64,000 nucleotides of DNA from Squalus acanthias (lineage: Eukaryota): the NCBI GenBank assembly GCA_030390025.1, contig CM059427.1, positions 9,362,001 through 9,426,000 of the forward strand. Reading direction: 5' to 3'. The translations under genes were made by a program, and so were the position numbers. Shown here piece by piece: positions 3,078 to 61,100 of this stretch. Numbering within the stretch: position 1 is the first letter of the stretch; the number at the start of each line of letters is the position of its first letter. The notes under the pieces were generated by a model, which did not search any database, had not been told where the DNA came from, and was given only the letters and a program-made list of their open reading frames with translations.

Positions 3078-6000
3078 ATTGAATCATAGAATAATTACAG
3101 CATGGAAGGCGGCCATTTGGCCCGTTGAGCCTGTACCAACTCTCAGCTACTCCCACTCCCCTGCCCTTTCCCTGTAGCCCTGCAATTATTTTTCCTTCAG
3201 ATACATATCCAACTCCCTTTTGAAAGATAAAATTGAGTCTGCCCCCACCAGCCCTCTCAGGCAGTGCATTCCAGATCTTAACCATTCGCTGTGTAAAAAT
3301 GTTTTTTCTTGCGTCACCTTTGGTTCTTTTGCCAATCACCTTAAATCTGTGTCCTCTGGTTCTTGACCCTTCTGCCAATGGGAACAGTTTCTCTCTATCT
3401 ACAGTGTCCAGACCCCTCATGATTTTGAACACCTCTATCAAATCTCCTCTCAACCTTCTCTGCTCTAAGGAGAACAACCCCAGCTTCTCCAGTCTATCCA
3501 CGTAACTGAAGTCCCTCATTTCTGGAATCATTCTCGTAAATCTTTTCTGCACTCTCTCTAAGGCCTTCACATCCTTCCTAAGGTGTGGTGCCCAGAATTG
3601 GACACAGTGCCCAGAATTGGACACAGTGCCCAGAATTGGACACAGTACTCCAGTTGGGGCCGAACCAGTGTTTTATACAGGTTCATCATAATTTCCACAC
3701 TATTGTACTCCATACATGAAGCTCAGGATCCCGTAAGCCTTTTTAACTGCTTTCTCAACCTGCCCTGCCACCTTCAACGATTTATGCACACATACCCCCA
3801 GATCTCTCTGTTCGTGCACCCCCTTTAGGATTGTACCCATTTAGTTTATATGTCCTCTCCTCATTCTTTCTACCAAATGCATCACTTCACACTTTTCTGT
3901 GTTAAATTTCATCTGCCACGTGTTTGCCCATTTCACCAGCCTCTCTATGTCTTCCTGAAGTCTATCACTCTCCTCCTCACTGTTCGCTATACTTCCAAGT
4001 TTTGTGTCATCTGCAAATTTTGAAATTGTGCCCTGTACACCCACATCCAAGTCATTAATATATATCAAGAAAAGCAGTGGTCCTAGAACTGACCCCTGGG
4101 GAACACCACTGTATACCTTCCTCCAGTCTGAAAAACAACCATTCACCACTACTCTCTGTTTCCTGTCACTTAGCAAATTTCGTATCCATGCTGCCACTGT
4201 CCCTTTTATTCCATGGGCTTCAATTTTGCTGGCAAGCCTATTATGTGGCACTTTGTCGAACGGCCTTTTGGAAATCCATGTACACCACGTCAACCGCATT
4301 ACCCTCATCAACCCTCTCTGTTAACTCATCAAAAAACTCGATCAAGTTGGTTAAACACGATTTGCCTTTAACAAATCCGTGCTGGCTTTCCTTAATTAAT
4401 CCACCCCTATCCAAGTGACAGTTGATTTTGTCCCTGATTACTGTTTCTAAAAGCTTCCCTACTACCGAGGTTAAATTGACTGGCCTGTAGTTGCTGGGTT
4501 TATCTTTACACCCTTTTTGAACAATGCTGTAACATTTGCAATTCTTCAGTCCTCTGGCACCAGCCCCGTATCTATGGAGGATTGGAATATTATGGCCAGT
4601 ACCTCTGCGATTTCCGCCCCCAATTCCCTCAGCATCCTAGGATGCATCCTATCCGCTCCTGGTGATTTATCCACTTTAAGTACAGCCAGCCTGTCTAATA
4701 CCTCTTCTTTATCAATTTTTATCCTATCAAGTGTCTCTACTACCTCCTCCTTCACTATGTCTACTCTTCCTTGGTGAAGACAGATGCAAAGTACTCATTT
4801 AGTACCTCAGCTATACCCTCTGTCTCCATGCATAGGTCTCCTTTTTGGTCCCTAATCAGCCCCACCCCTCCTCTTACTACCCTTTTACTATTTATATGCC
4901 TATAGAAGACTTTTGGATTACCTTTTATGTTGGCTGCCATTCTATTCTTATATCCTCTCTTTGCCCCTCTTATTTTCTTTTTCACTTCTCCTCTGACCTT
5001 TCTATATATAGCCTGATTCTCAGATATATTTGCGACCTGACATCTGTCATACGCGCTCTTTTTCTGCTTCATCATATTCTCTATCTGTTTCATTATCCAG
5101 GGAGCTCTGATTTTAGTTGCCCTACCTTTCTCCCTCGTGGGAATGTACCTCGACTGTACCCGAAGTATTTCCTCTTTAAAGGCAGCCCATTGTTCCACTA
5201 CAGTTTTGCCTGTCAATCTTTGATTCCAGTTCTCATCTCACTGAAACTGGCCTTCCCCCAGTTAAACATTTTTACTCTAGATTCCTCCCTGTCCTTTCCA
5301 TAACTAATCTAAACCTCATGATATTATGATCACTGTTCCCTAAATGTTCACCTACTGACACTTGCTCCACTTGACCTACCTCATTCCCCAGAGCCAGATC
5401 CAGCAATGCCTCCTCCCTCGTCGAGCCAGAAACATACTGATCAAGAAAGTTCTCCTGAACACACTTCAGAAATTCTTCCCCTTCTCTGCCCTTAACACTA
5501 TTACGATCCCAGTCTACATTAGGATAGTTGAAGTCCTCCATTATTACTACGTGATAGTTCTTGCACCTCTCTGTAATTTCCCTGCAAATTTGCTCCTCCA
5601 TATCTTTACCACTATTTGGTGGTCTATAGAATACACCTAGTAGTGCAATGGCATCTCTATTATTTCTTAACTCTAGCCATATAGATTCTGTCCTTGACCC
5701 CTCCAGGACATCCTCTCTCTCTAGCACTGTAACATTCTCCTTAACCAATACTACCACACCACCTCCTATCTTTCCTTCCCTATCTTTCCTGAACACCTTA
5801 TAACCAGGAATATTTAAAACCCAATCCTGCCCTTTTTTGAGCCAGGTCTCAGTTACTGCCACAACATCTATATTCCCATGTGGCTATTTGTACCTGCAGC
5901 TCACTTACCTTGTTCACTATGCTTTGTGCGTTCATATGCATACACTGTAAACCTACCTTAGACCATCCTGTATTCTCTCTTAGTTGGACCCCACCAAATA

Positions 6001-6234: not shown

Positions 6235-6990
6235 AGTAAATGCAGCTCAACATAGATAAGAGTTGAAGTAGTACATTTTGAACACAGAGAATGGAAGTAT
6301 ACCCTGCAACACTCTCAATGGGGAGAGGAACGAGAGATCTTGGATGTAAATGCACAAATGTATAAAAGCAAGATTGCAGGTGAAAAAAGCCATAAAAAGG
6401 CCAAATTGGATTCTGAGTTTTATATACCCCAGCACTGAATACAAAGAAATGGTCAGGTATCTGTACTAGATATTGATTAGGCTGCAGTTGGAGTACTGCT
6501 TGCAGCTCTGGGCATTCCATTGTAGAAAGAATATTAGAACCATGGAAAAGGTGTGAAGTAGATTTACAAGAGTGCAACAATGTAGTTATGATGAGAGACT
6601 TGAAAACCCAGGACTGTGTCCACTGGAGCAGAAAAGGTGGAAAGGATCTCATAGAAATATTGAAAATTCTGAAAAGATTTAAGAGGATGAATAGAGAAAA
6701 TTATTTCCAGTGATCGAAAGAGTTGGTAACAAGGACCATAGTATCAGGTTAGTAACGAGCATAAGAGAGAGGATATAAGATTTTTTTCATGTAAAAGATT
6801 GATAGAACATGGAATGCATTAGCACAAGTGGCCATTAAGGCCAAGTTAATCACAACATTTAAGAGGGAATTGAACACTTTAATAATAAAAATATTAACGG
6901 GTACAAGGAAAGAGCAGGGAAGGGACATTAGAATAGAAAGGTCCAATATGGACCAAACACCACCACAGGCACTGTGCCAAATAGCTTCCA
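6235..6990 (+). mobile_element. Old CR1 3' fragment
   Basis: Degraded ERDLG / LEYC.Q.W / GL.SLE motifs. Confidence 0.65.
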
Positions 6991-13902: not shown

Positions 13903-15210
13903 GCCACACAAAAGATTATTGCTTAAGGTAAAAAATCACGGGATTGGGGGTAATATTCTGGCATGGATAGAGGATTGGCTATCTAACAGAAAGCAAAGAG
14001 TTGGGATAAATGGTTCATTCTCAGACTGGCAATCAGTAACTAGTGGTGTTCCACAGGGGTCAGTGCTGGGTCCCCAACTCTTTACAATCTATATTAACGA
14101 TTTGGAGGAAGGGACCAAGTGTAACATATCAAAAGTTTGCAGATGATACAAAGATGGGAGGGAAAGTAGTGAGTGAGGAGGACATAAAAAACTTGCAAGG
14201 GGACATAGACAGGCTAAGTAAGTGGGCAGAGATTTGGCAGATGGAATACAACACTGGAAAGTGTGAGGTGATGCACTTTGGCAGGAAAAATCCTAGAGCA
14301 ATTTATTATCTTAATGGCAAGAAACTGGAGAGTACTGAAGTGCAAAGGGATCTGGGGGTCCTGGTGCACGAAACTCAAAAGGTTAGTATGCAGGTGCAGC
14401 AAGTGATTAAGAAGGCAAATGGAATGTTGGCTTTCATTGCTAGGGGGATAGAATATAAAAATAGGGAGGTATTGCTTCAGTTGTACAAGGTATTGGTGAG
14501 ACCGCACCTGGAATACTGCATACAGTTTTGGTGTCCTTACTTCAGGAAAGACATCCTTGCTCTCGAGGCAGTGCAAAAAAGGTTCACTCGGTTAATCCCG
14601 GGATGAGGGGGTGGTCATATGAGGAGAGGTTGGGTAGATTGGGACTCTACTCATTGGAGTTCAGAAGAATGAGAGGCGATCTTATTGAAACATATAAGAT
14701 TGTGAAGGGGTTGGATCGGGTGGATGCGGGGAGGATGTTCCCGATGACGGGTGAGACTAGAACTAGGGGACATAGTCTTAGAATAAGGGGCTGCTCTTTC
14801 AAAACTGAGATGAGGAGGAACTACTTCACTCAGAGGGTGGTAGGTCCATGGAATATGCTGCCACAAAAAGCTGTAGAAGCTACATCATTAAATAAATTTA
14901 AAACAGAAATAGACAGTTTCCTAGAAGTAAAGGGCATTAAGGGTTACGGGGAGTGGGCAGGAATTTGGACATGAGTCTAGGTTCGGATCGGTCATGGCCC
15001 TGTGGGTAGTGGAGCGGGCCCAGGGACCGTGTAGCCTGATTCTGCTCCTATTTCGTGTGTGCAATTCTGTTAGATGCAGGAGATGGTTCTGTGATAGATA
15101 GTAGATTGGCGGTTAGGATCAGATCAGCCATGATCTTATTGAATGGCGGAGCAGGCTCGAGAGGCCGATTGGCCTACTCCTGCTCCTATTTCTTATGTTC
15201 TTATGTTCTT
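13903..15210 (+). mobile_element. 5'-truncated CR1 (RT to 3' end, double-tail family)
   Basis: [28 protein letters not shown]; ends in (ttcttatg)n. Confidence 0.92.
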
Positions 15211-20458: not shown

Positions 20459-20856
20459 GGGCCGTATTTTCCGATCGGAGGCTTCCCGCGTACGGAGGCC
20501 TCTGATCTGGGAAAAAATCTACGCACTTACCTGAGGGCTCCCGAGGTGCGTATAGTTCCGATGCTGGGCCTCTCCAACTCCAAGTGCGCAGGGGGCCTAC
20601 GTATCCCAGAGAGCTTTTACCAGGCGTAAGATTTCTAAGGGTTTTCTGCGGGCGGAGGTTCTCCAGAAAGCGGAACTATCCGCCTGCAGAGGCCCTTCGC
20701 CAGGGCAGGCGTCCGATCTGTCAAGTGCTTTCTTGACAGATCGGAAGTGTCGGTTTTCAGCGCATGCGCTGTGCATGCCTGAAACCGGCATTTCCGATGT
20801 CCCTACGGGTGTTTACACAGCGCGTACCCACCCGTAGGGATCGGAATATCCGGGCC
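20459..20856. mobile_element. CpG-rich MITE (Harbinger-like)
   Basis: 18-bp imperfect TIR gggccgtattttccgatc / gatcggaatatccgggcc; flanks att/atg. Confidence 0.75.
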
Positions 20857-21636: not shown

Positions 21637-22232
21637 ATGCTGCAGTTGTACAGGGCCTTGGTAAGACCACACCTTGAGTACTGTGTGCAGTTTTGGTCGC
21701 CTTATCTGAGGAAGGATGTTCTTGCCATGGAAGGAGTTCAGCGAAGATTCACAAGGCTGATACCTGGGATGGCAGGAATGACATATGAGGAGAGATTGGG
21801 TCGATTGGGCTTATACTCGCTAGAGTATAGAAGAATGAGAGGGCATCTCATCGAAACATATAAAATTCTGACAGGTCTGGACAAACTAGATGCAGGAAGA
21901 ATGTTCCTGATGGTCGGAGAGTCCAGAACCAGGGGTCATAATCTAAGGATAACGGGTAAGCCATTTAGGACAGAAATGAGGAAGAATTTCTTCACCCAGA
22001 GAGTGGTGAACCTGTGGAATTCTCTGCCACAGAAGGTAGTTGAGGCCAAGTCATTAAATATATTCAAGAATGAGTTAGATATATTTCTTAAAGCTAAAGG
22101 TATCAAGGGATATGGGGAGAAGGCAGGTACAGGGTACTGAGTTTGGATGATCAGCCATGATCTCATCGAATGGCGGAGCAGGCTCGAGGGGCCGAATGGC
22201 CTACTCCTGCTCCTATCTTCTATGTTTCTATG
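21637..22232 (+). mobile_element. Young 5'-truncated CR1 (family B)
   Basis: Open ORF2 C-terminus (167 aa) plus tail; near-identical to the copies at 41121 and 51628. Confidence 0.92.
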
Positions 22233-23008
22233 TTATGTAATAAATGTTTAAAACTGTCTTCACAAAGTACAATGCTAAAAAGTAGATGTGAAACGTTAGC
22301 TGCATCCTCAGCATCTCCTCTCCCATGGAACTTCATTCAACCGTCTGTACTTGAATCAGGCAACTAAAGGTACTCCTTGCATCAATGCTTCTCTTCAAGA
22401 TGGAGAAAGAGCTCCCTATGCCAATCAGGGAACGTGCCTGTGTGTGTCACACCATAACTGCAGTTTGCCGTCATTGACATTTATGGATTATAATTGGGGT
22501 ATAGCCCCAAATTTATTTGTTCATTTTTACGGGTGCAGCTATTGAATTTAACCCTAAAGGCAGAAGGTGTAAGTTACACAAGGAGGATGGCTACTTGGGT
22601 GAGGTTACTGGGGAACTGCCAGTGTCCACAGAACTGTGCCTCGGCAAGAGTCAGCATTTTCAGCGATGGGACAAATCGGGACAAACAAAAAAACATTTTT
22701 TTTTTTAAATGAAGTGAGAAAAGGCCATTTGCCATCAGGTCCGGTAGTTCCAAAATACAGTGTACAATCTGTTCCATCATGCAAACAATCCAATCCCGAA
22801 TGAAAGGTTTTGAAATGTTTTTCCCCCAACCCTAACCGTCAATCAAATAAAACTCCAGAATGCCAATCCAATATCCAAATTATTCAGCCTTAATTAGCTG
22901 CCTTCTCTGCCATGACATTGCCAGTGCTCCTGGCAGACAACAACCATCATGTTCTACACAATATTCAATCATCTTTATCTGTACTTAACTGTATTCTTTG
23001 GTGATTTC

Positions 23009-27773: not shown

Positions 27774-28476
27774 ACACAAGGGGCAAGGGTGAGGGTGAGC
27801 CAGAGCTACACAAGGAGCAAGGGTGAGGGTGAGCCAGAGCCACTCAAGGGGCAAGGGTGAGGCAGAGCCACTCAAGGAGCAAGGGTGAGCCAGAGCCACT
27901 CAAGGGGCAAGGGTGAGGGTGAGCCAGAGCCACTCAAGGAGCAAGGGTGAGCCAGAGCCACTCAAGGGGCAAGGGTGAGGGTGAGCTACACAAGGGGCAA
28001 GGGTGAGGGTGAGCTACACAAGGGGCAAGGGTGAGCCAGAGCCACACAAGGGACAAGGGTGAGCCAGAGCCACTCAAGGGGCAAGGGTGAGCCAGAGCCA
28101 CTCAAGGAGCAAGGGTGAGGGTGAGCTACACAAGGGGCAAGGGTGAGCCAGAGCCACACAAGGGACAAGGGTGAGCCAGAGCCACACAAGGGGCAAGGGT
28201 GAGGGTGAGCCAGAGCCACACAAGGGGCAAGGGTGAGGGTGAGCCACACAAGGGGCAAGGGTGAGCCAGAGCCACACAAGGGACAAGGGTGAGCCAGAGC
28301 CACACAAGGGGCAAGGGTAAGCCAGAGCTACACAAGGGGCAAGGGTGAGCCAGAGCTACACAAGGGGCAAGGGTGAGCCAGAGCCGCTCAAGGGGCAAGG
28401 GTGAGCCAGAGCCACACAAGGGGCAAGGGTGAGCCAGAGCCGCTCAAGGGGCAAGGGTGAGCCAGAGCCACACAAG
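27774..28476. repeat. G-rich minisatellite, 28/34-bp variant units
   Basis: Core gggcaagggtgagccagagccacacaag, roughly two dozen copies with optional ggtgag/ccagag hexamers. Confidence 0.95.
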
Positions 28477-28507
28477 CTGTTTTAGGAGCTGCCACATGAT
28501 CGGATAT

Positions 28508-29205
28508 CATAAGAACATAAGGAATAGGAGCAGTAGTCGGCCATATGGCCTCTTGCGCCTGCTCCACCATTCAATAAGATCATGGCTGATCTACCTCAAC
28601 TCCACTTTATCGCACTATCCCCATATCCCTCGGTTCCCGTAGCGTCCAAAATCTATTGATCTCGGTCTTGAATAAACTCAACGACTGAGCATCCACAGCC
28701 TTCTGCAGTAGAGAATTCCAAAGATTCACAACCCTCCGAGTGAAGAAATTTCTACTCACCTCAGGATAAAGGGTCAGCCATTTAGGACTAAGACTATGAC
28801 CCCCCTAGTTCCAGTCTCTCCAGTCAGGGGAAACAACCTCTCAGCATCTACCCTGTCAAGCCCCCTAAGAATTTTATACATTTCACTGAGATCACCCCTC
28901 ATTCTTCTAAATGCCAGAGAACATAAGCCAATTCTACTCGATCTCTCCTCATAGGACAACCCTCTCATCCCAGGAATCAACCTAGTGAACCTTTGTTGCA
29001 CTCCCTCTAAGGTAAGTATATCTTTCCTTAGGTAAGGAGACCAAAACTATACACAGTACTCCAGGTGTGGTTCCCCCTTAGCTACCCAACTAGCTATAGT
29101 CTCAGAAAACTCTTAACAGATTTGACAAATGCGATTTCCCTTTCATAAAACGGTGTTGAATCTGCCTAATCATATTATGATTTTCTAAGTGCTCTGTTAC
29201 CATTA
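28508..29205 (-). mobile_element. CR1 3' fragment(s)
   Basis: QRFTRLIPGMRGLSYEER..., CR1 tail cataagaacataag at the low end. Confidence 0.85.
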
Positions 29206-29566
29206 TTATTAGGTATGTTTGACTCTCAAGTCTTACTGCTTGCCTCTCTTTCGCGCTCTCTCTTGCTGTGTGGACAGTCACTCAGCTCCAGCTCAAACCC
29301 ATGACTCCATCTCTTCAGCTTGTGCTGTGGCTCAATCTCATACACACACATGCCCCCTTCATCAACTGATAGTTTTAACTGGAGTATTGCCAGTGTGAGC
29401 AGTGGGGGAGGGGGGGGGGGAGAGGAGGGGGATGGTAAAATTTTTGTTTTTATTTCTTTTTTTACATCTCCTTTAGCCCTTGTTGGCCCTCGCCATTCTC
29501 CTTTTCATCACTTGCCCCCTGTCTCAGGTACTGTGGTTTGAATTTCGACTTGGTTTCTGTCTGGAT

Positions 29567-30683
29567 AGAAACATAGGAACACGAGGAGGCTATTCAGCCC
29601 CTCGAGCCTGTTCCGCCATTCAATGAGATCATGGCTGATCTGCGACCTAACTCCATATACCTGCCTTTGGCCCATATCCCTTATAACCTTTGGTTAACAA
29701 AAAGCTGTCAATCTCAAATTTAAAATTAACGATCAATCTAGCATCAATTGCCATTTGCGGAAGAGAGTTCCAAACCTCTACCACCCTTTGTGTGTAGAAG
29801 TGTTTCTTAATTTCATTCCTGAAAGGTTTGGCTCTAATTTTTAGACTCTGCCCCCTAGTCCTAGAATCCCCAATCAGTGGAAATAGTTTCTCTCTATCTA
29901 CCCTATCTGTTCCCCTTAATATCCTGAAAACTTCGATCAGATCATCCCTTAACCTTCTGAATTGTAGGGAATACAACCCTAATTTGTGTAATCTCTCCTC
30001 GTAATTTAACCCTTGAAGTCCAGGTATCATTCTGGTAAACCTACGCTGCATTCCCTCCAAGGCCAATATATCCTTCCTAAGGTGTGGTGCCCAGAACTGC
30101 TCACAGTCCTCCAGGTGTGGTCTAACCAGGGTTTTGTATGGCTACAGCACAACTTGTATTCTAGTCCTCTAGATATAAATGCCAGCATCCCATTAGCCTT
30201 TTTGAATATTTTCTCTACCTGATCATGATATTTTAATGATCTATGTACCTGAACCCCCCAAGTCACTTGGACCTCCACTGTTTTTAGCTTATCACCATTT
30301 AGAAAGTACCCAGCTCTATTCTTTTTAGATCCAAAGTGGATGACCTCACATTTTCTTACACTGAAATCCATTTGCCACAGTTTTGCCCATTCACTTAATC
30401 TATCAATATCCCTTTGTAATTTTATGCTTTCATCTACACTGCCTACAATACCGCCTATCTTTGTGTCGTTGGCAAATTTGAATATATGACTTACTATGCC
30501 ATGATCTAAGTCGTTAATAAATATTGTGAATAGTTGAGGCCCGAACACAGATCCCTGTGGGACACCACTAGTCACATCCTGCCAATTTGAGTACCTGCCC
30601 ATTATCCCTACTCTCTGTCTCCTGCCGCTCAGCCAATTTCCTAACCAGGTCAATAACTTGCCCTCAATTCCGTGGGCTTCTAA
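29567..30683 (-). mobile_element. CR1 3' half (RT C-terminus + tail) of the 5'-inverted element
   Basis: LEAHGIEGKLLTWLGNWL...SGVPQGSV...; tail ends next to ctggat at 29561-29566. Confidence 0.9.
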
Positions 30684-33600
30684 GCAGCGACAGCACCGGA
30701 GGGGGCAGCAGATAAAAACAGCGGGAGACCAAGGCAGCGCGGACCTGAGCGGCAGCAGCACAGAGGAGGCGGCACCTCCGACGGTCTCAACAACAACAAA
30801 TAACAAGGAGCGACGTCACAGGACAGCAGGTAGGTGATTGGTGGGTGAGTATTAACGTTTTTTCTCTCTAACCAAGGACAATGGTTTAAACTAGGAGCGG
30901 GAGACTATAATGTACTTTATTAAATTTATAACTTAACAAGTTAAACTAATTAATGTAACTATAAATAGTCGCTGAATAAAGACATTAACTAATTAAATAA
31001 ATAAAATAAGGTTAGACCAAGACATGGCAGGGACTGCAGTGTGTGGGAGTTTGTGGACGGTGAGACTGTCCCGAGCAAACACGTCTGCAGGAGATATCTC
31101 CGTCTCGAATCTCTCTGGCTCAGAGTCATTGAGCTGGAGTGTGAGTTGGAGACACTCCAACACAGAAGGGAGGGGAGGAGTATCTGGACAGTTTGCTCCA
31201 GACTTCGGTCACACCTCGTAGAGAGGTGCAGGATCAGATTGGGGTTGTTGTGACCGATAGTGTGCAGAGAAAGGGGAACCCAGGTAAGAAAGGGAACGAG
31301 GATCCACAGAAACTGATCCTATCCAACGGGTACAATGTACTTGCGACCTGTGAGGATAAAGACTGTTGGAAGGACAGCCAGAATGCAGACCATGGCACTT
31401 TGGAGCAGGAGGCTGTCTCAAGGCGGGAGGAGGAGGAAGTGTAATGTGGTAGTTGTAGGGGATTCTATAATTAGGGGGACAGATAGCATCCTTTGTAAGC
31501 AAGATCGAGAGTCCCGCATGATGTGTTGCCTACCTGGTGCCAGGGTAAGGGACATCTCAAACCAGCTTGAAAGGATATTGGAAAGGGAGGGGGAGGATAC
31601 AGTCATTGTGGTCCATGTTGGGACCAACAACATAGGGAAGAGTAGGCAAGAGGTCATGTATGGGGAGTGCCAGAAACTAGGAGCTAAATTAAAGAACAGG
31701 ACCTCAAGGGTTATAATCTCTGGATTAGTACCTGAGCCATGCGCAAATTGGCATAGAGATAAGCTGATTAGGGAAGTAAACACATGGCTAAATGAGTGGT
31801 GTGGGAAAGAGGGGTTCCATTTCCTGGGGCACTGGCACCAGTATTGGGACAGGAAGGAACTGTACCATTGGGACAGGCTTCACCTGAACCGGTCTGGGAC
31901 CAGGATCCCAGCGGAAAGGATAAATTGGGCGGTCACAAGGACTTTAAACTCATAAATAGGGGGGAGGGCTCAGGGGGAAATTGCAGTACAAATAGCAGTT
32001 CAAACACAAACTAAAGTGAAGAGAGTAGAGTAGCAGTCAGAAATTGTGCTTTAGGCACAACAGGGTAAGGGGAAAACTAAAAGATGTAAAGCGATTAAAC
32101 CAGGAGAGAGAAATAAGAAACATGTGAGTAAAACATCAGAGCTGAAGGACAGGCTACGGTGAGTGGCCCAAATAAGTGTTCTTTTACAAGCGCACGGAGT
32201 ATAAGGAATAAATTGAATGAACTGCAGGCGCAAATTCAAATTGGAGGGTATGACATGGCTGCAAGAGTCAGGACTGGGAACTAAATATACCAGGTTATAA
32301 GATCTACAGGACAAATAGGGAAAATGGCAGAGGGGGAGGAGTAGTCTTAGTGATTAAGGATGAAATCACTTCAATGATGAGAGAGGATTTAAAGAGAGGT
32401 AAGCAGGCAGTGGAGACCTTATGGGTCGAATTAAGAAATAGGAAAGGATCTAAGACTGTAGTGGGAGTTGTGTATAGGCCCCCTGATAGCAGCTCTGAAG
32501 TGCTAGATTGTATAAATGCAGAGATTAGTTAAGAATGTAGCAGAGGTAGAGTGGCTTTAATGGGGGATTTTAACTTTCATATAGATTGGGAAAAGCAGAC
32601 TAGCACCGGTCAGAAAGGTAGTGAATTTCTTGAGTGTGTCCAGGATAGTTTTCTACAACAATGGCCCAAAAATTCGGCCGTTCTCGGGTGAGTACTCAGT
32701 GCGTACTCACCCGTATTCATTCCCGAAGTGCCGGTTTCCTGCATGCACTGCGCAAGCGCGGGAAACCGGCACTTCCGGTATGGCGAAGGGGGCGGTTCCT
32801 AGGTGAACTGCGTGCGCACTAGAGGCTGCGCGCACGCAGCACACTTAGGTTTTTTTTCAGGTTTCAACGCGAGGGTAAGTATGGAAGATTCTACACAAGT
32901 AAAAAGGAGGCGTAAGACCCCTTTTGAACAAGGTAAGTAGTTAATTAAGTATAATTTTAAATTTTTTTCAACAGGTTTATCTTTTTTAGAGACTTTAAAG
33001 AAAGGTAAGTTTATTTTTATAACTTTTAAAAAGTATTTTAATTTTTTCAAAAATTTAAATTTTTGTTTAAAGTGGTTAATTTATTTAACTATAGTTATTT
33101 TATTAATGTGATGGTTTTTTAAAAAATTTATTTGAGGTTTAGCTGTTCTTTTGGGGCCGATTTCAATTCACAGATTTGACAGGTCTCCTGTCAAATCTAT
33201 GAATGAAAGATGGTCTGCTGCCATTGGCTCTCCATGGCCCACGTGATCCCAGGGGTCGCATCGCACTAACTGCGCCCCTGGAACACGCAAGCACTGCGCG
33301 CCGGCACTAGGGAGAGGCCCAGGACCCGAAGTTCCTGTGGGCCCGAAACACAACGGCAGGCGCGGTGGGTAAGAGCGCGCGCGATCCTTACCCCCGCGGC
33401 AAGCCGGCCACCCGAATTTCTAGGCCATTATGTCCTAAGGGCAACAAGGGGGCAAGCCATATTAGATTTAGTAATGAGTAATGAGCTAGATTTAGTTAAC
33501 AGCCTAACTGTGTGTGAACGCTTATCCAATAGTGATCATAACATGATCAAGTTCAACGTAGCGTTTGAAAGGGAGAATCGCGAAACAACTACAAAGATTC

Positions 33601-34647
33601 TAGACTTATGTAAGGCCGACTTGAACAGGATGAGGCAGAGACTGTCCACAGTAAACTGGGCAAGTCTGTTAATAGGTAATACGACACAAGAACAGTGGGA
33701 GATGTTTAAAAATGTGATACAGAACCAGTTTATACCCCTGAGGGGCAAGAGCTCTACTTGCCAAAAATACAGCCATGGGCAACTAAACAGCATAAAACTA
33801 AAGAAAAAGCATACAAAAATGCAAAAAGTAGCACAGATCCTGATGACTGGGAAAGATACAAAGAACAGCAAAGGGTCACAAAACAGATAGTAAGAGCTAG
33901 AACAAGGGAGTATGAAAATAAACTTGCAAGGGATATCAAAAATCAATACAAAGAATTTTACATTAGGAAAAAGAGGGTGGTCAGGAGCAATGTTGGCCCC
34001 TTAAAAACTGAAAGTGGTGATATTGTCAATGACAATGGGGAAATGGCAGACATGTTGAATACTGTATTTACTTTGTGTCAGTATTTACAGTAGAAGATGA
34101 TAGCATGTCGGAAATCCCAAAGAAACTAATATTGAATCGGGGACAGGGACTCAATAAAATTAATGTAAATAAAGTAACAGTAATGAAGAAAATAATGGCA
34201 CTAAAGAGTGACAAATCCCCAGGGCCAGATGGTTTCCATCCCAGGGTTTTAAAGGAAGTAGGTGAGCACATTGCAGATGCCCGAACTATAATCTTCCAAA
34301 GTTCTCTGGATTCAGGAACCATCCCTTTAGATTGGAAAATTGCGCATGTCACTCTGCTTTTTAAGAATGGCGAGAGAGCGAAACCAGGGAATTATAGACC
34401 GGTTAACCTAACATCTGTTGTCGGGAAATTGCTAGAGTCTATAATTAAGGATAGGGTGACTGAACACCTCGAAGATTTTCAGTTGATCAGAGAGAGCCAG
34501 CATGGATTTGTGAAAGGTAGGTCATGCCTGACAAAACCTGACTGAATTTTTTGAAGAGGTGACCAAAGTAGTGGACAGGGGAATGTCGATGGATGTTATT
34601 TATATGGACTTCCAGAGGCATTTGTTAAAATTCCACATAAGAGACTG
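30684..34647 (+). mobile_element. CR1 5' half (5' UTR, ORF1 zinc-finger/coiled-coil + SGNH esterase, endonuclease, RT N-terminus), inverted
   Basis: VVVVGDSIIRG...CLPGARV...HVGTNN...DRLHLN esterase; VYRPP; DKSPGPDGFHPRVLKE; SQHGFVKGRSCLT; ends at IPHKRL overlapping ctggat (34645-34650). Confidence 0.9.
32663..33426. mobile_element. MITE inserted in the CR1 endonuclease region
   Basis: TIR ggcccaaaaattcgg / ccgaatttctaggcc; flanks aat/att; removing it restores FLQQYVLRATRGQAILDLV. Confidence 0.85.
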
Positions 34648-35069
34648 GATGCACCGTAGGAGCAGGTGGTGGTGACAGGAATTGCCGAGAACTGACTTTA
34701 ACCTTGGAAATCACTCGGTGTAAATAACTCACCACAGTTTTGTGATGGGCCTTGGGGAACAAAGAGAAATCTGCAGTGGGCATCTAATGAGCAGGACCTG
34801 TGTAAGTTTGATTCTTCCAGTTAACCTGGAGCTGACCACAAGCAATTACTTTGTGACTCTTAATGGATGTGACTGGATGCTGAGTGAGAGTGGGGTTGGT
34901 TTAATTCCACCCTGTCTACACTAACATAACATCCAGACAGCCATAACCAGCCCAACATGTCTGCAAACATTATGTTCCAATTAGCCCACCAGAGCCCACC
35001 ATTCATAGCCAACCAGAATGTTAGTCGTTAAAGAGTTAAAACCAAAGACTGATTATCAGCATGCAAAAG

Positions 35070-35494: not shown

Positions 35495-36934
35495 TTAATG
35501 TATGCTTATGGAGGGACTCACAGCACACAGGGAGATTCTCTTCCCGTCCCATGGGCGGAAGAGACCTCCCCAGGAGACCATCGCAGCCTGGTTTCACATT
35601 GCACAGGAGGACACAAGCAGGGATGTCGTCAGGAGGACCAGGCTGCAGTGGCGCAAACCTTTCAATGATCTCAGTAGATCACGAAACGTTACTGCAAAGC
35701 CACACTCAACCTCATCCTGCTGTGCCACTCATCACATCCCCATCACTCTACCTCCCCATCTCTACTCCTGCACATCCTTGCTCACACCAACTTAGCTTGC
35801 ACCTCCACCCATCTCTCTCTATCTACATTATCACTTCCCCATCTCACTAGCCACCCCTTATCCTAGTCCAATCATACCAACTAACAACACACAAGGGTAG
35901 GCACTTGGGTGTTTTAGCCAATGTTCATGTGAAGTTTCTGTTAATGTGCTGTGAAACATTGAAATCTTTATTTTCAACACTTTGCGTTCTTGGACAGATT
36001 TGTGTGCACCTTTGGAAGTGGCTTAGTGAGTTGCAGTGAATGGTGAGACATAACAGTATCCCCCACAATGGTGATGGGTGTGAAAGGAATGGCTTGGGCA
36101 TTGCAGGGATGCTTTATGGTGTTGGTGTGGGGTGGTGTCAACCTGGCACATCATGTGGCAGCCAGGGTGTGCAGTGTCAAGTGAAGTAAATCTGGTTATG
36201 GTGAGGCCATCCTTGGCGTCCCGGGCAGCAACATGATCGGGTGCTGATGCCCTGTGTCCTGTGCAGCATCAGTTGATTGCGGAGAAGGTTGGTGTTATTG
36301 TTGGTGCTGCTGGTGTGCCTGGTGCTGCTGGTGTTGGGGCTGATCGTGGTGGGATTCTGAGGGCCAAGGTGAGATTTTTTCAAGGGCACTGATGCTGATG
36401 TAATAGATGGCAGGTGAGGTTGAGATGACAGAAGCGATCTGTCAATGGTGAGAGAGGTTGTTCCAATGAGGTGACACTGGACAGAAAGTTTGATCCAAAC
36501 ACTTGCAAGTTGCATAAAGCTCAATCTGTCTTCCAAATGCAGTAAGCAAGAACCTGGAAAGTGAAGACCTATGAAATTGAGCTTTTATAGACGATTTGCA
36601 GCTGTCAAGTTCGTAAATCATCCCATGCTGACACAACACCCGACCTTCTTACCTGACGTGATCCCCGCGCAACGGGGAAGCCGTTGGCAAACTCTAAAAA
36701 TCTAAAGGTGAGCTTAAAATAAGACTTAATTGCCTTTTAACAATGCATTTAATGATCTAAATTGTCTCCCCCGCCGCTTGGTGTCGGGTCTGTTCAGCAC
36801 TGACAGGCCCGACACCTGGGAGACTCGCGTGGAGGCGGCTTGACAGCGGGTTCCCGACCCGCTCTCAATCCTTTCTATTTTGACAGCTGACCCGCCTCCG
36901 ATCCCGCCCTCTCAGCGCCGGTAAATTTCCGGCC
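35495..36934 (+). mobile_element. Non-autonomous Harbinger-type element with Myb/SANT remnant, copy 1 (left end lost)
   Basis: REILFPSHGRKRP...AAWFHIAQE...RRTRLQWRKPFNDL trihelix/SANT pattern; right terminus gtaaatttccggcc; inverted homology to 57953-61100. Confidence 0.75.
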
Positions 36935-38989: not shown

Positions 38990-39413
38990 GGGCAACACGG
39001 TGGCATAGTGGTTAGCACTGGTGCCTCACAGCGCCAGGGACCTGGGTTCGAATCTGACCTCGGGTGACTGTCTGTGTGGAGTTTGCACATTCTCCCTGTG
39101 TCTGCGTGGGTTTCCTCCGGGTGCTCCCACAGTCCAAAAATGTGCGGGTTAGGTTGATTTGGCTATGATAAATTGAACCTTAGTGTTAGGGGGGGATTAA
39201 ATATGTGGGGTTATGGGGATAGGATGGGATATGTTAGGGAGAATTAAATACGTGGGGTTACGGGGGTAGGGTGGGATATGTGTACTGTGGGGATTAAAGC
39301 AGGGACAGGGTACTGGATTTGAATGATCAGCCATGATCGTATTGAATGGTGGAGCAGGCTCGATGGGCCGAATGGCCTACTCCTGCTCCTAGATTCTATG
39401 TTTCTATGTTTCT
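38990..39413 (+). mobile_element. HE1-type V-SINE, full length
   Basis: Near-identical to 715-1136. Confidence 0.85.
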
Positions 39414-41120: not shown

Positions 41121-41460
41121 GAGGAAGAATGTTCCCGATGGTCGGAGAGTCCAGAACCAGGGGTCATAATCTACGGATAACGGGTAAACCATTTAGGACA
41201 GAAATGAGGAAGAATTTCTTCACCCAGAGAGTGGTGAACCTGTGGAATTCTCTACCACAGAAGGTAGTTGAGGCCAAGTCATTAAATATATTCAAGGATG
41301 AGTTAGATATATTTCTTAAAGCTAAAGGTATCAAGGGATATGGGGAGAAGGCAGGGACAGGGTACTGAGTTTGGATGATCAGCCATGATCTCATCGAATG
41401 GCGGAGCAGGCTTGAGGGGCTGAATGGCCTACTCCTGCTCCTATCTTCTATGTTTCTATG
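41121..41460 (+). mobile_element. Young CR1 3' end (family B)
   Basis: GRMFPMVGESRTRGHNL..., tail ttctatgtttctatg. Confidence 0.9.
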
Positions 41461-42056
41461 TTTTCTGACCCCAGGAGTCTTACCATCTATCCTTGGATAG
41501 GCAAGTAGGAGTGGGGAGAGGGACAGTGAGTGGAGCTTAAGGATGAGGTGAGTGACAGTGGAGCAAGAGGGAGAGGAGGATATAGGGGTTGAGCAAGTAG
41601 GCAGGGGAAGAGGTAAGAGTAATGATAGGAGTGTGGGGGTGGCAAGATAGGGAAAGGGTAGTGGAAAGGTGAAGGGATGGGAACACAATGGGATCAAGGG
41701 GTTTGGCGGAACATATGAGTGGTTAGGGGAGGTGCTGGGAAGAGTCACCAAGGGCTACATTTCCCCCACAACCCTCATTCTCACATGCTGCCTGCAGCTG
41801 TTGATGGCTCCTTTCCCTGCTACACAATACCAGACCATGTCCCGCCTCCCGACTGAAAGGAGAGAAAATAAAAAGACAGAGAAGCAAAAGAGGACAGAGA
41901 GGGGAAACAATAGGAAGAGTTATGGGGAAAGCAGCGGGAGAGGAGAGACAGAGGGAAACAGCAACATGAGGGCAGCAGAGACAGGTAAGAGAGGGACTAT
42001 ATTCATCAACTGACTGTATGCAATGCTACAGGAGATATCATACATACAGATATAGA

Positions 42057-51627: not shown

Positions 51628-52083
51628 CATGACCTATGAGGAGAGATTGGGTCGATTGGGCTTATACTCGCTGGAGTATAGAAGAATGAGAGGGGATCTC
51701 ATCGAAACATATAAAATTCTGACAGGTCTGGACAAACTAGATGCAGGAAGAATGTTCCCGATGGTCGGGGAGTCCAGAACCAGGGGTCATAATCTAAGGA
51801 TAACGGGTAAGCCATTTAGGACAGAAATGAGGAAGAATTTCTTCACCCAGAGAGTGGTGAACCTGTGGAATTCTCTACCACAGAAGGTAGTTGAGGCCAA
51901 GTCATTAAATATATTCAAGAATGAGTTAGATATATTTCTTAAAGCTAAAGGTATCAAGGGATATGGGGAGAAGGCAGGTACAGGTTACTGAGTTTGGATG
52001 ATCAGCCATGATCTCATCGAATGGCGGAGCAGGCTCGAGGGGCCGAATGGCCTACTCCTGCTCCTATCTTCTATGTTTCTATG
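51628..52083 (+). mobile_element. Young CR1 3' end (family B)
   Basis: Open 120-aa ORF2 C-terminus, near-identical to the 21637 copy. Confidence 0.92.
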
Positions 52084-53412
52084 TATCCCACTCAAAATTA
52101 AAAAAATAAACATTGCTTCTGACTGAGAAGCAGGACTGTCACTCTATTCTCTTTTGTTTCCTCCTAAATAGTACTGAGTTTGTTTTATTTTTGTGACTGT
52201 GCGTAGTTTGAATCTGTATTACTGTAATACATTATTAATTATCCTACTGTGCACAAGTTCAGCCTGAGGTACACACTGCTCCTTTAATTGAAAAGCTGTT
52301 TTCAGTAGGAGGTACTGTGTTAGTATATATTCACGTCTCCGATTCATTTGGTACATGCAGCTGAAGGCTCGGCTCTTAATTGGAACATCCTGGTCAGAAG
52401 CAAAACATTCCTCATATCCAACCAATCCCATTGATCATACAATGCAAATGAAGTAGGAATGAATTGGCATCTGTGCCAATGTTCCCTCTCTAAATTAAAA
52501 GCATGGCCATTAACCAACACGTACAGTAGTAAAAATGAATGCTGGGCACTATAAACAATCAAGAGCAAGAGGCATACATTATGAACAGCCCTTCACTCAG
52601 TCCAAGATATATTTACTGTACACAACAAAAATCCTGCTATGAGTCATAATATGGTATTAGTATGTGTGGCAGATCAAAATGTGCAACGTAAGGTTTTTAT
52701 GAAGAGCAAACTGTGCATTCACATTATTAAAACCACAAGCATTTTTAAAGAAAGAAACATCAAATAGTACTGTAACAGTATATTTAAGGTTTCCTATTTT
52801 CAGATATAGCTTTTAGACCCCAAATTACATGATTTACAAACCAGCAAAGGAAAGGATCAAACTTGGAGTGCAGCTAAAACGGCAATCCAGGCAAAGATTT
52901 ATATTTAACTTGGAACAAACCTTCAGGCAGGGCAGGAACAACATGCATCTCTCTCATTATTTAATGCTCCATTATTTAAGGCCATTAAACGGCCTATTGA
53001 ACACTGGAGGTGAAACAAGATGTTACACAATAGACTTCATGAAATGTTAACCGTGCACGACATGTGTTGTCAGCACATTTTCATGTCATCCTTTCATTCC
53101 GACTAATTACATGAGTGTGTCTAACTTCTTTCTTCTATTACATAAAACTGGCGAGTGTAACTCCACACACTGCATGTTTTCAACCATTCTGTTTAATAAT
53201 AAAACAGAACTGATCAAAATGCAAATTGCAGTTTGCTCATTAACCCCAAGAGGGTAACCGAAGAATTACTGGCATTAAAAAGCTCTTTGTGAACATACTG
53301 TGAATGAAGTGTTCTATCGCTCCGTGTACTGTTCTAAGTATATTTGATAATATAACATTCTGACATAGATATTTATAGAATTTTTTTGTCTATGTTTTGT
53401 AATGGAAAGAAT

Positions 53413-54542
53413 GGGGGTGATTTTAACCCCCAAGAAAGGGTGGGTTTGATTCAGGTGACAAGTTAAAACTTACAGTTTTAATGGAGGCGGTACGTGGCGC
53501 GGGCGACCAATTCGCTCTCGGGAGGCGGGTTGGTCGGTAACAGCTTTTAAGGAGGCTGCGTGCCTCCACTTTAACAGGCTTTTTATTTTTAACCCATTTT
53601 GGCTGGGTTTCCCTGGGCTCAGGAAACCCGGCAGGTAAAAGGAGGCGAGAAGGGCCGGATCTATAATGTAAGTACATTTACAGCACTGCTTGTGGGCCAG
53701 GAGGAGCAGGAGTGTTTCGCCCTAGTCCAACAAGCAAACCTGCTTCCAGCTCCACGATCGCTGACTCCACCCCCCCGATCTCACACCCTGCAATAGCCCT
53801 CACACCTCAACGCTCGCCCCCCCCTGCAATCTCTCCCCTCCCCGTGATCTCCCCCCACCTCCACGCTCTCCCCTCCCCGTGATCTCCCCCCACCTCCACG
53901 CTCTCCCCTCCCCGTGATCTCCCCCCACCTCCACGCTCTCCCCTCCCCGTGATCTCCCCCCACCTCCACGCTCTCCCCTCCCCGTGATCTCCCCCACCTC
54001 CATGCTCTCCCCTCCCCGTGATCTCCCCCCACCTCCACGCTCTCCCCTCCCCGTGATCTCCCCCCACCTCCACGCTCTCCCCCTCCCCGTGATCTCCCCC
54101 CACCTCCACGCTCTCCCCTCCCCGTGATCTCCCCCCCACCTCCACGCTCTCCCCTCCCCGTGATCTCCCCCCACCTCCACGCTCTCCCCCTCCCCGTGAT
54201 CTCCCCCCACCTCCACGCTCTCCCCCCTCCACGCTCTCCCCTCCCACGATCTCCCCACCGGCCCCCCCCCCCCCATCCCCCAACTACAATCTCCCCCCCC
54301 CCCGCCCCAGAGAGCCCCTGAACGCAATCTCCCTCCTGGACCATGAGACTCCCCCCCAATCTATCCCTCCCTCCCTACCTGCTTCTCGGCTATGGCCTTG
54401 TGCCACAGGCTTTCCTGCCTGACAGGTGGGAACGATGTCCTGCAATTAATATCTGCATGATATCCAGGAAACCCGTACTTCCAGGATTGCTGTCCAGAAC
54501 TCAGCTCCCCCCAAACCCCCTCACCCCGCAAATATCGAGACC
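53413..54542 (+). mobile_element. MITE (Harbinger-like) with internal minisatellite
   Basis: Ends gggggtgatttt / aaatatcgagacc with exact 3-bp TSD aat/aat. Confidence 0.8.
53831..54255. repeat. 35-bp C-rich minisatellite, about 12 copies
   Basis: Unit ctctcccctccccgtgatctccccccacctccacg. Confidence 0.95.
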
Positions 54543-57952: not shown

Positions 57953-60900
57953 GGCCAGAAATTTCCGGGGTGGTAGCGGGCGCGATTGGTGGTGGGTCGG
58001 GTGGGAAAGTTGTTATTTTTGACAGCGGGTCAGGAACCCGCCCCCACGCGCCTTTCCCCCAGGCACGTCTGACATCGCGGAGCCGACCTGACCGGCAGTG
58101 GCGGGGGACCCAGTTGAGATGATTAACAGCTAGTTGTCAGACCCTTAACAGGCTTTATTAAACTTACTTTTTAAATTTAACTGTATAGCCACGGCAACCA
58201 CGCTGCTCAGGAAGCACGTCTGTCGACCTGAGGCCGGAGTTCAGTGACCATTGCTCCAGCTGATTACTTGACGACAACAACAACTTGTATTTATATAGTG
58301 CCTTTAACGTAGTAAAACATCCCAAGGCGCAGCACAGGAGTATTTAAGACAAAAAATTTGACACCGAGCCACATAAGGATAAATTAGGGCAGGTGAGGAA
58401 AAGCTTGGTCAAGGAGGTAGGTTTTAAGGAACGTCTTAAAAGGAGGAAAGAGAGGTAGAGAGGCAGAGAGATTTAGGCAGGGAATTCCAGAGCTTAGGGC
58501 CTAGGTAACAGAAGGCACGGCCACCAAAGGTTGAGTGATTATAATCAGGGATGCTCAAGAGGGCAGAATTAGAGGAGCGCAGATATCTCAGGGGGTTGTG
58601 GGGCTGAAGGAGGTTACAGAGATAGGGAGGGGCGAGGCAATGGAGGGATGTGAAAACAAGGATGAGAATTTTGAAATCGAGGCGCTGCTTAACCAGGAGC
58701 CAATGTAGGTCAGCGAGCACAGGGGAGATGGCTGAACAGGACTTGGTGCGAGTTAGGACATGGGCAGCTGAGTTTTGGATGACCTCAAGTTTACGTAGGG
58801 TGGAATGTGGGAGGCCAGCCGGGAGTGCGTTGGAATAGTCAAGTCTAGAGGTATCAAAGGCATGGATGAGGGTTTCAGCAGTGGATGAGCTGAGGCAAGG
58901 GCGGAGACGGGCGATGTTACAGAGGTGGAAATAGGCGGTCTTTGTTATGCCGCGGATATGTGGTCGGAAGCTGATTTCAGGGTCAAATATGACACCAAGA
59001 TTTCGAACAGTGCGGTTCGGCCTCAGACAGATGTTAGGGAGAGGGATGGAGTCAGTGCCTAGGGAACGGAGTTTGTGGCGGTGACCAAAAAACAATGACT
59101 TCAGTCTTGCCAATATTTAATTGGAGAAAATTTTTGCTCATCCAGAACTGTATGTTGGACAAGCAGTCTGACAATTTAGACACCGTGGAGGGGTCGAGAG
59201 AAGAGGTAGTGAGGTAGAGCTGGGTGTCATCAGCGTACATGTGGAAACTGACGTCGTGTTTTTGGATGATGTCGCCAACTGGCAACATGTAGATGAGAAA
59301 TAGGAGGGGGCCAAGGATAGATCCTTGGGGGACACCAGAGGCAATGATGTGTGGGAGCAGGAAGAGAAGCTGTTGCAGGTGATTCTCTGGCTACGATTAG
59401 ATAGATAAGAATGGAACCAGGCGAGTGCAGTCCCACCCAACTGGACGAAGGTGAAGAGGCATTGGAGGAGGATGGAGTGGTCAACCATGCCAAAGGCTGC
59501 AGACAAGTCAAGAAGGACAAGGAGGGATAGTTTACCTTTGTCACAGTCACAAAGGATGTAATTTGTGACTTTGATGAGAGCCATTTCGGTACTGTGGCAA
59601 GGGCAGAAACCTGATTGGAGGGATTCAAACATGGAATTGCGGGAAAGGTGGATACGGATTTGGAAGGCAACAACACGTTCAAGGACTTTGGAGAGGAAAG
59701 GGTGGTTGGAGATGGGGCGGTAGTTTGCAAGGACGGAGGGATCAAGGGTTGGTTTTTTGAGGAGGGGGTGATGACGGCAGATTTGAGGGAGAGGGGGACA
59801 GTACCTGAGGCGAGAGAACCGTTAACAATATCAGTTAACATGGGAGCCAGAAAAGTAAGTTGGGTGTTCAGCAATTTGGTGGGAATAGGGTCGAGGGAGC
59901 AGGAGGTGGGTCTCATCAAAATGTACAGTAAAAGCTCCCACCTGACAGATGATCACTTTCCTCAGGCAGAAGCTGTTGCTCAGTCCATTTCCAGCACAGA
60001 TTCTGCAGGCTGCAAGTCTTTCCAGCAAAGTCTCCATCCAGTCTCACCTCATTGGAAGAACTCTCTTACCATTGACAGATTGCTTCTGTCATCTCTACTT
60101 AACCTGCCATCTATTCCATCAACATGGGTGCCGTTTATACTGTCTCACCTTGGTCCTCAGAATTGGACCACGATCAGCCCCAACACCAGCAGCACCAGGC
60201 ACACGAACAGCACCAACAACAATGCCAACCTTCTCCACAATCACCTGATGCTGCACAGGACAAAGGGCATCAGCACCCGAGCACATTGCTGCCCGGGACG
60301 CCAGGGATGACCTCATCATGGCCAAATTTAGTTAACTTTATGCTGTACACCCATATGGCTGCCACATGATGCGCCAAGTTGGTACCACCTCACACCAACA
60401 CCATAAAGCATCCCTACAATGACCAAGCCATTCCTTTCACACTCACCACCATTGCGGAGGGTATCATTATGTCTCACCATTCACTGAAACTCACTAAGCC
60501 ACTTCCAAAGGTGCACACACATCTGTCCAAGACCGGAAATTGTCGAAAATAAAGATTATGTTTGACAGCACATCAACAGAAACTTTACATAAACATTGGA
60601 TAAAACACCCAAGTGGCTACCCTTGTGTGTTGTTAGTTGGTATGATTGCACTAGGATGAGGGTGAGTGTGAGGGGTGGCTAGTGAGATGGGGGTGTGATA
60701 ATGTAGATAGAGAGAGAGGGATGGGTGGAGGTGCAAGGTAAGTTGGTGTGAGTAAGGATGTGTGGGAGTAGGGTAGGGAAGGCAGAGTGATGGAATGTGA
60801 GGAGTGGCACAGCAGGATGAAGTGGAGTGTGGCTTTGTACTAACGTTTCCTGATCGAATGAGATAATTGAAACGTTTGCAGCACTGCACCCAGGTCCTCC

Positions 60901-61100
60901 TGAACACATCCCTGCTTGTGACCTCCTCTGCAATCTACAACCAGGGTGTTTTGGTCTCCTGGGGAGGTCTCTTCCACCCATCGGTAGGGAAGAGGGCCTT
61001 CCCTGCATGCTCTGACTCCCTCCATAAGAATATGGAGGGAGTCATCAGAGAACCTGGGTGCAGCCCTCTGCCTCTGTGCAGTCATCATCAGTGTTTGCAG
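57953..61100 (-). mobile_element. Non-autonomous Harbinger-type element with Myb/SANT remnant, copy 2, interrupted by L2
   Basis: Terminus ggccagaaatttccgg; RAAPRFSDDSLHILMEGVRACRE...RRTWVQCCKRFNYL at about 61088-60845 (frameshifted). Confidence 0.75.
58271..59918 (-). mobile_element. L2 LINE RT + 3' end
   Basis: SCSLDPIPT, QSGF...HSTE.AL, LLDLSAAF, HMYADDTQLY, SRLDYSNAL; (ttg)n tail at the low end. Confidence 0.92.

Follow-up and report, generated by a model that had tools for sequence, protein, structure and literature searches.

A CR1 retrotransposon copy in Squalus acanthias with an inverted 5' part and the geometry of twin priming

Structure of the inverted CR1 copy

The window, a stretch of 64,000 nucleotides from the cartilaginous fish Squalus acanthias that was analysed at its full length, carries at one locus a single decayed CR1 copy of which the front three-quarters is inverted. 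The features of this locus are as follows (TSD, target-site duplication; RT, reverse transcriptase).

29561..29566, no strand: TSD copy at the 3' (tail) end of the element, ending in AT, 2 nt that extend the tail repeat as well (3' microhomology)
29567..29646, minus strand: 3' UTR of CR1 and a short tail of TTCTATGT-type repeat units (non-poly-A), with a 3' UTR anchor common to other tails in the window
29647..30683, minus strand: non-inverted half, C-terminal part of ORF2 from LEAHG, second RT half to the stop
30681..30687, no strand: inner (inversion) junction, 5' end of the element against the internal RT breakpoint, exact joining base placed to within a few nt
30684..31023, plus strand: inverted half, putative 5' UTR, 340 nt, GC- and CAG-rich, assigned as UTR from its position
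31024..31955, plus strand: inverted half, ORF1 of the SGNH/GDSL esterase type, two frameshifts (~31180, ~31421)
32150..32661, plus strand: inverted half, first part of the ORF2 N-terminal APE endonuclease, frameshift at ~32265 and stop at 32532
32660..33429, no strand: nested MITE-like insertion of 770 bp in the endonuclease region, with terminal inverted arms
33434..34647, plus strand: inverted half, remaining endonuclease, linker and first RT half, to ...IPHKRL, four frameshifts
34645..34650, no strand: TSD copy bordering the inverted half on the outside; CTG doubles as the final codon of CR1

The plus-strand piece (30684-34647) runs from the 5' UTR through the esterase ORF1 and the endonuclease into the RT and ends at ...PHKRL, and the minus-strand piece (30683-29567) runs from LEAHG through to the tail. 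The putative 5' UTR directly precedes the ORF1 ATG at 31024. ORF1 matched Pfam PF13472 (E 5.6e-10) and was 62% identical to Scyliorhinus torazame P0236 across residues 10-318. The RT domain RVT_1 was recognised on both sides of the break, at domain positions 6-51 in the inverted half (33434..34647, E 8.6e-7) and at positions 92-194 in the non-inverted half (E 6.8e-9), which carries one frameshift near 30154 and one stop near 30142. Frameshifts and stops in both halves mark the copy as decayed. The 770-bp MITE-like insertion in the plus-strand piece, whose 18-nt terminal inverted arms match at 89% with the AAT/ATT flanks included, is an addition to the earlier description of this copy.

Both halves aligned to named CR1-type ORF2 proteins bearing PF03372, PF14529 and PF00078. 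These references are labelled as RT proteins in the database, and we take them to be CR1 from the LINE gene models of birds, turtles and sharks. The canonical features of CR1 were all found: an ORF2 with APE endonuclease and RT, an SGNH/GDSL esterase ORF1, and a conserved 3' UTR that ends in a short tandem repeat rather than poly-A. An esterase ORF1 belongs to the canonical vertebrate CR1 (PMC13343379). With the chondrichthyan CR1 elements represented by Callorhinchus P0041, Mobula P0057 and Scyliorhinus P0236 the copy shares the esterase ORF1, the APE-RT ORF2, the non-poly-A tail and the short TSD, at 52-62% protein identity; it differs from them in its split ORF2, flipped 5' part, decay and nested MITE. 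The first-pass annotation had called the copy full-length. This holds as far as a complete ORF1 plus 340 nt of GC-rich sequence upstream.

The breakpoint and the relationship of the two halves

The proposal that the two pieces are complementary halves of one ORF2, back-to-back on opposite strands, was confirmed in both coordinates and geometry. On the named CR1 ORF2 protein P0057 of Mobula, the end of the plus-strand piece (34647) falls at residue 492 and the start of the minus-strand piece (30683) at residue 496, so that about 3 codons (9 nt) are missing between the halves and no sequence is duplicated. This gap, also put at about 3 codons in the earlier reading, was borne out by a protein motif and by a DNA copy in the window. 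Among 16 named CR1 ORF2 proteins scanned (12/16 matched), the two histidines at the breakpoint were 9 residues apart in 14/14 motif matches; the halves supply 3+3 of these residues, and hence 3 codons are missing. Comparison with an uninterrupted CR1 copy on the minus strand at 4150-4420 gave a 9-nt gap again, at the DNA level. The halves adjoin at 30683/30684 with no recognisable spacer. The geometry of a twin-primed insertion is present, with both parts from one template and the internal breakpoint at the outer end.

Family affinity of the halves was compared at the protein level. The best named relative of both, among 30, was Callorhinchus P0041 (61.5% and 61.4%), even the nearest named references being only ~60% identical, and for the plus-strand half Hemiscyllium P0080 was a near tie (61.0%). 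Lesions occurred at 3.0 per kb in one half and at 1.9 per kb in the other (binomial P = 0.74), with a count of 2 to 4 for the minus-strand half, where a compensated frameshift pair near 30250-30270 was probably missed by the aligner. In trees built with the 17/30 named references that span both halves, which are unclassified gene models, the terminal branches were 0.54 and 0.48, and these trees were poorly supported (37-78 at the relevant splits). Base composition and CpG depletion were alike and uninformative. A clear difference in subfamily or age, named beforehand as evidence against a single element, was not seen between the halves; their affinity and decay are compatible at low resolution. 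Membership of both in one subfamily would fit these comparisons, which test it weakly.

The window holds 15 loci with ORF2 matches, including the inverted copy, and complementary opposite halves were found in 0/14 of the others. The pieces at 3151-5874 (minus) and 6314-6751 (plus) were considered as a second inverted copy and rejected; they lie back-to-back, but their ORF2 coordinates overlap and their divergence differs. Within the window there was no copy of the same family (the nearest was 64-72% identical over the RT), no second copy of the UTR and ORF1 of the inverted element and no paralog of the flanks spanning the join. No long frame crosses the join in a six-frame reading of the modelled empty site, and Rfam gave zero matches in the window.

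Target-site duplication and junction overlaps

CTGGAT was present as an exact 6-nt repeat at both outer ends (29561-29566 and 34645-34650), as first described. It could not be extended on either side, and a longer, decayed TSD was rejected. When up to 6 nt of register freedom was allowed at each end, 130/20000 random flank pairs (0.65%) reached at least 6 nt. A TSD of 6 nt is of normal length for CR1; in coelacanth, CR1 TSDs measure 2-10 nt in 12/15 listed insertions (PMC4255032 Table 2).

Both ends of this TSD overlap the element. The Leu codon of HKRL forms the first 3 nt of the TSD, in agreement with the earlier observation that CTG overlaps the last CR1 codon, and the outer 5' junction thus has a microhomology of at least 3 nt, a length that by itself is weak (~1 in 64). 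At the 3' junction there is a 2-nt overlap (AT) between the TSD and the tail repeat. The 3' UTR anchor recurs in ten further tails of the window; the TTCTATGT-type unit occurs in 5/10, and all five of these run on into AT. The AT and CTG overlaps sit at opposite ends of the TSD, each at its predicted primer end. The new observation is that the TSD, at both of its ends, matches the element RNA at the positions where twin priming requires pairing. Another CTG occupies 30685-30687 on the minus strand, 1 nt away from where the non-inverted half starts.

Origin of the inversion

Twin priming is a copying error that has been described chiefly in mammalian L1. All the hallmarks of it that a single locus can reveal are present here (the TSD, the outer 5' microhomology, the 3' overlap, the breakpoint outside with the 5' end inside, and the 9-nt internal deletion), which supports the twin-priming reading of the first-pass annotation. 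We consider twin priming of one CR1 RNA to be the best explanation of the locus and a highly probable one. This is a known mechanism in an unexpected clade, at a single locus. Under twin priming, the endonuclease would have made staggered nicks 6 nt apart, as the TSD suggests. The first 3' end would have paired with the tail repeat through the 2 nt seen to overlap, and the first reverse transcription would have proceeded for ~1.1 kb, to the middle of the RT. The second 3' end, CAG on the element-sense strand, may then have paired, through the overlap at the outer junction, with a CUG codon of the same RNA located ~9 nt past the point where the first cDNA stopped, and have primed another cDNA, ~3.2 kb long, through ORF1 into the 5' UTR. 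Repair joining the two cDNA ends would leave the structure observed, in which the 5' part is inverted, 9 nt are deleted and the TSD is intact. The copy would have been dead on arrival because its ORF2 was split, with decay and the arrival of the MITE following later.

Twin-primed L1 copies share with this one the order of parts (an inverted 5' part that begins at an internal breakpoint, then a non-inverted, tailed 3' part, the whole between two TSD copies), an outer-junction microhomology of 2-5 nt, a short internal deletion and a non-inverted part of ~1 kb. In L1, ~70% of 5'-inverted copies have 2-5 bp of microhomology at the 5' junction (PMC2912911), short deletions occur at the inner breakpoints of 22/32 de novo inversions (PMC11702581), and the median internal deletion is 14.5 bp with a median inversion point ~0.9 kb from the 3' end (bioRxiv 2024.08.27.596794). 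The copy differs from L1 in its clade, its 6-nt TSD (10-20 in L1), its short repeat tail in place of poly-A and its lack of the T-rich L1 target motif. The internally primed part is also the longer of the two and extends beyond ORF1 into the putative 5' UTR, whereas inverted L1 copies typically carry a 5' deletion as well. Two points from L1 run counter to twin priming here. Among inverted L1 copies whose TSD was short and perfect, 0/10 kept a short TSD under a relaxed definition (PMC2912911 Table 6), and of the two L1 cDNAs the internally primed one is usually shorter (medians 0.54 vs 1.51 kb; bioRxiv 2024.08.27.596794), while in the CR1 copy it is about three times longer than the other. Twin priming in the narrow L1 sense (L1 clade, poly-A, 10-20 bp TSD) does not apply; the copy is L1-like in its working and is not an L1.

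The main rival is a normal full-length CR1 insertion followed by a genomic inversion through a 3-nt inverted microhomology, CAG at the TSD end and CTG inside the RT, with ~8 nt lost. CTG does occur at both breakpoints in the expected orientation (34645-34647, plus; 30685-30687, minus), and a copy old enough to have gathered a MITE and lesions has had time for later events. However, CAG occurs in 42% of 7-nt windows over the first 100 nt of the putative 5' UTR, so the second CTG is unremarkable in such a CAG-rich sequence. A random inversion would have no reason to strike within a few nt of the 5'/TSD boundary, and a separate small deletion would still be required; we regard a later inversion as unlikely. 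That the outer breakpoint coincides with the TSD would be accounted for if the inversion arose during integration without internal priming on the same RNA. Examples are a completed cDNA that broke within the RT, with end-joining reattaching its 5' part in reverse orientation, and priming of another RNA of this family from the opposite end. Such an event avoids priming from a 6-nt overhang, end-joining too uses microhomologies of 2-3 nt, and two-RNA insertions have been described for L1 (PMC11702581). However, nothing would make two RNAs begin and end at points within 9 nt of one another, and breaking and flipping involves additional steps, after which an intact TSD would be less expected, which leaves an integration-time event of this kind quite improbable.

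Two unrelated insertions or remnants adjacent by chance, or a misassembly, can be entertained in a window this dense in LINEs, with its 15 ORF2-match loci counting the inverted copy itself, and where the halves are weakly shown to be of the same subfamily. Chance would nevertheless need endpoints that agree within ~10 nt of ~4.3 kb (of the order of 0.5% by simple arithmetic), together with a chance 6-nt repeat (0.65%) and zero spacer, and the missing half of either piece is absent elsewhere in the window. Fold-back read artefacts duplicate sequence, whereas the halves seen here are complementary. Chance adjacency or misassembly is very improbable.

Previous experiments bear directly on twin priming outside L1. 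In an experimental comparison, 5' inversions were nearly confined to human L1 in human cells; ZfL2-1, a CR1-group element with a ~5-bp TSD, gave zero in HeLa or DT40 cells, 5'-inverted L1s had TSDs of 10-20 bp, and the ~5-nt overhang of the CR1-group LINE was proposed to be too short for internal priming (PMC4245944). The same study recovered one 5'-inverted insert of zebrafish Nimb-2_DR in DT40 cells (1/~30 inserts, ~12-bp TSD). Nimb-2_DR shares with our copy a 5' inversion from a non-L1 LINE, an outcome that is thus not strictly L1-only; it belongs to another clade and was a cell-culture event, whereas the CR1 is a natural germline copy with a 6-nt TSD. In literature searches, one of which was blind to the usual spelling with a prime, neither twin priming nor a 5' inversion came up for any CR1. 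The inverted copy looks like a counter-example to the argument from overhang length, and if the empty site confirms it, a natural CR1 that combines the complete twin-priming signature with a 6-nt TSD would directly contradict the proposal in PMC4245944.

For this single dead copy a host function is not evident. More tentatively, and with somewhat less than even confidence, we suggest that CR1 elements of chondrichthyans recurrently integrate through twin priming, for which a 6-nt overhang and 3-4 paired bases suffice and which can yield near-complete inverted copies. If so, it would be mistaken to hold that 5' inversion requires L1 and a long overhang, and shark genomes rich in CR1 should contain many such events, split into two elements by repeat annotation. 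In such genomes inversion frequency can be tested against overhang length, clade or host, with the warning that inverted copies of this kind are recorded as two separate fragments.

Structure of the split CR1 copy

The CR1 copy at 29561..34650 is split into two back-to-back pieces, with its front part inverted and the halves of ORF2 on opposite strands. It comprises the following features:

30684-31023, + strand: putative 5' UTR, GC-rich
ATG at 31024, + strand: ORF1, SGNH/GDSL esterase (PF13472, E 5.6e-10), with two frameshifts
from ~32150, + strand: start of ORF2, endonuclease
32660-33429: 770-bp element interrupting the ORF2 endonuclease, with 18-nt inverted ends
to 34647, + strand: ORF2 after the 770-bp element, ending ...IPHKRL (residue 492 of the Mobula protein P0057)
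30683 to stop at ~29647, - strand: remainder of ORF2, starting LEAHG (residue 496 of P0057)
stop at ~29647 to tail end at 29567, - strand: 3' UTR and repeat tail

Without the 770-bp element the copy measures ~4.3 kb, of which 3194 nt are inverted and 1117 nt are not. The histidines flanking the breakpoint enclosed 9 residues in all 14 motif matches, which came from 12 of the 16 named proteins scanned. The two halves supply 6 of the 9 intervening residues, and thus three codons are missing; the same 9-nt gap was obtained against the continuous CR1 at 4150-4420 in the window. This confirms the first-pass annotation, which had described the pieces as complementary ORF2 halves about 3 codons apart.

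The 770-bp element is non-coding. Its ends begin GGCC, its core is AT-rich and several hairpins lie within it. The AAT/ATT flanks can be read as a 3-bp target-site duplication (TSD) bearing a single change, or as AT with a base added, and a partial relative (76%) lies at 20742-20834. We take the element to resemble a MITE of the PIF/Harbinger group.

Relationship of the two halves

Of the 30 named references, Callorhinchus milii P0041 gave the top score for each half (61.5% and 61.4%), although Hemiscyllium P0080 scored almost as high with the + half (61.0%). The highest-identity full-coverage match for both halves, among the matches listed, was P0045 (62% and 59%). The control was the copy at 3150-5880 (-), a long continuous CR1 of a different lineage that retains nearly the whole ORF2 and carries, within that ORF, a short tandem triplication at 3588-3646; both of its halves favoured Hemiscyllium and Scyliorhinus proteins instead. 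Per-half trees, which took in 17 of the 30 references, set each focal half apart from this control at support values of 68 and 78; the terminal branches were of similar length (0.54 and 0.48), and finer placement differed between the halves without support (37-45). Lesions numbered 8 in 2641 nt and 2, possibly 4, in 1029 nt (P = 0.74 with the count of 2). Affinity, trees and lesion counts are compatible with one element, at a resolution too low for subfamilies. The first-pass annotation held that halves of different subfamily or age would contradict its interpretation; similar decay and a shared best reference were found, and subfamily identity lies beyond the resolution of the data.

The closest named protein was Scyliorhinus torazame P0236 for ORF1 (62%) and P0041 for the RT (~61%). 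Bird, turtle and frog models were only 43-53% identical, and the nearest named proteins all came from cartilaginous fishes, which makes a chondrichthyan host probable.

Target-site duplication and origin of the inversion

CTGGAT flanks both outer ends, as first proposed (29561-29566 and 34645-34650), and the repeat cannot be extended. A repeat of at least 6 nt arose in 130 of 20000 trials in which the flanks were swapped for random window sequence, with up to 6 nt of overlap permitted per end. Such a length is normal for CR1: coelacanth CR1 TSDs measured 2-10 nt in 12 of 15 insertions (PMC4255032 Table 2), and a peak of 3-5 bp is cited for L2 and CR1 (PMC4245944). The earlier observation that the CTG of the TSD overlaps the last CR1 codon was upheld. 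We additionally found that the TSD, in element orientation, starts with AT and overlaps the tail; AT continues all five other window tails having the focal repeat unit (10 other tails were found). Primers from the first and second nicks could therefore both pair with the RNA, and the two overlaps lie where twin priming predicts them. Overlap at the 3' end is usual for any CR1 (PMC6007223) and so supports a true insertion boundary, whereas the overlap specific to twin priming is the internal CTG.

Most probably, twin priming on a single CR1 RNA produced the locus. The first-nick primer would pair with the tail through 2 nt, and at least 3 nt would join the second-nick primer to the internal CUG. 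TSD, overlaps and gap agree with this interpretation of the first-pass annotation, which we retain as the best explanation for this single locus. A later genomic inversion guided by CAG/CTG microhomology would leave almost identical sequence, and a second CTG is present at 30685-30687 (-); however, where the focal UTR begins, 42% of 7-nt windows contain CAG, and a random inversion would have no reason to stop at the TSD boundary, which makes this origin unlikely. Repair during integration may instead have flipped the front part, or a second RNA may have been primed; either needs more coincidences and is quite unlikely, while chance adjacency or misassembly, needing two independent sub-1% coincidences, is highly improbable.

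Twin priming itself is known from mammalian L1; what is unusual is its occurrence in a CR1 with a 6-nt TSD. According to PMC2912911, ~31% of species-specific L1 insertions are 5'-inverted, ~70% of these with 2-5 bp of microhomology at the 5' junction. The inner breakpoints of L1 inversions lie close together: short deletions are described for 22 of 32 de novo events (PMC11702581), and another study gives a share of 66% and a median of 14.5 bp (bioRxiv 2024.08.27.596794). The focal copy agrees in 5'-junction microhomology, close inner breakpoints and a short deletion, but differs in TSD length (6 versus 10-20) and tail type. The part primed internally is also ~3x longer than the one primed at the tail, whereas in L1 the internally primed part is the shorter (medians 0.54 kb against 1.51 kb; bioRxiv 2024.08.27.596794). 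According to PMC4245944, 5' inversions in cultured cells were confined to human L1 acting in human cells and a single Nimb-2_DR insert. ZfL2-1, with TSDs of ~5 bp, gave none, and the paper suggests that 5 nt of overhang would not suffice. These observations lower the prior for twin priming at this locus, and they are why the finding matters.

No report of CR1 twin priming was found in the literature searched, provisionally, as subscription papers on CR1 junctions may describe cases. The words "inversion" and "inverted" are absent from the main text of a 2026 survey of CR1-group elements (PMC13343379), and in PMC5389967, PMC3747384 and PMC2718515 term matches were confined to reference lists. 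A bolder reading, offered tentatively, is that shark CR1 elements integrate by twin priming repeatedly.

Other repeats in the window

The window is repeat-dense, with 15 loci matching LINE ORF2 references; the focal geometry was seen at one of the 15 and the esterase ORF1 match in the focal copy only, both anecdotal counts. Rfam gave no match anywhere in the window. A 5'-truncated CR1 at 13904-14968 (+) has its alignable start, PHKRL, no more than a few codons away from where the focal copy breaks, probably by chance, and no inverted partner was seen in the window. The CR1 at 28500-29200 (-), which ends ~360 bp to the left of the focal TSD, has an apparent large internal deletion that brings reference residues 460 and 687 together. 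Three 5'-truncated CR1 3' ends (21778-22233, 41122-41462 and 51629-52084) are mutually 97.6-98.5% identical, a family much younger than the focal copy. Minisatellites occupy 27792-28476 (28-nt unit, 24 copies) and 53817-54302 (C-rich 35-nt unit, 12 copies). A 1-kb repeat pair lies in inverted orientation at 35501-36507 and 60011-61032 (85%), and a 426-nt pair at 714-1139 and 38994-39409 (95%) ends in a CR1-type tail.
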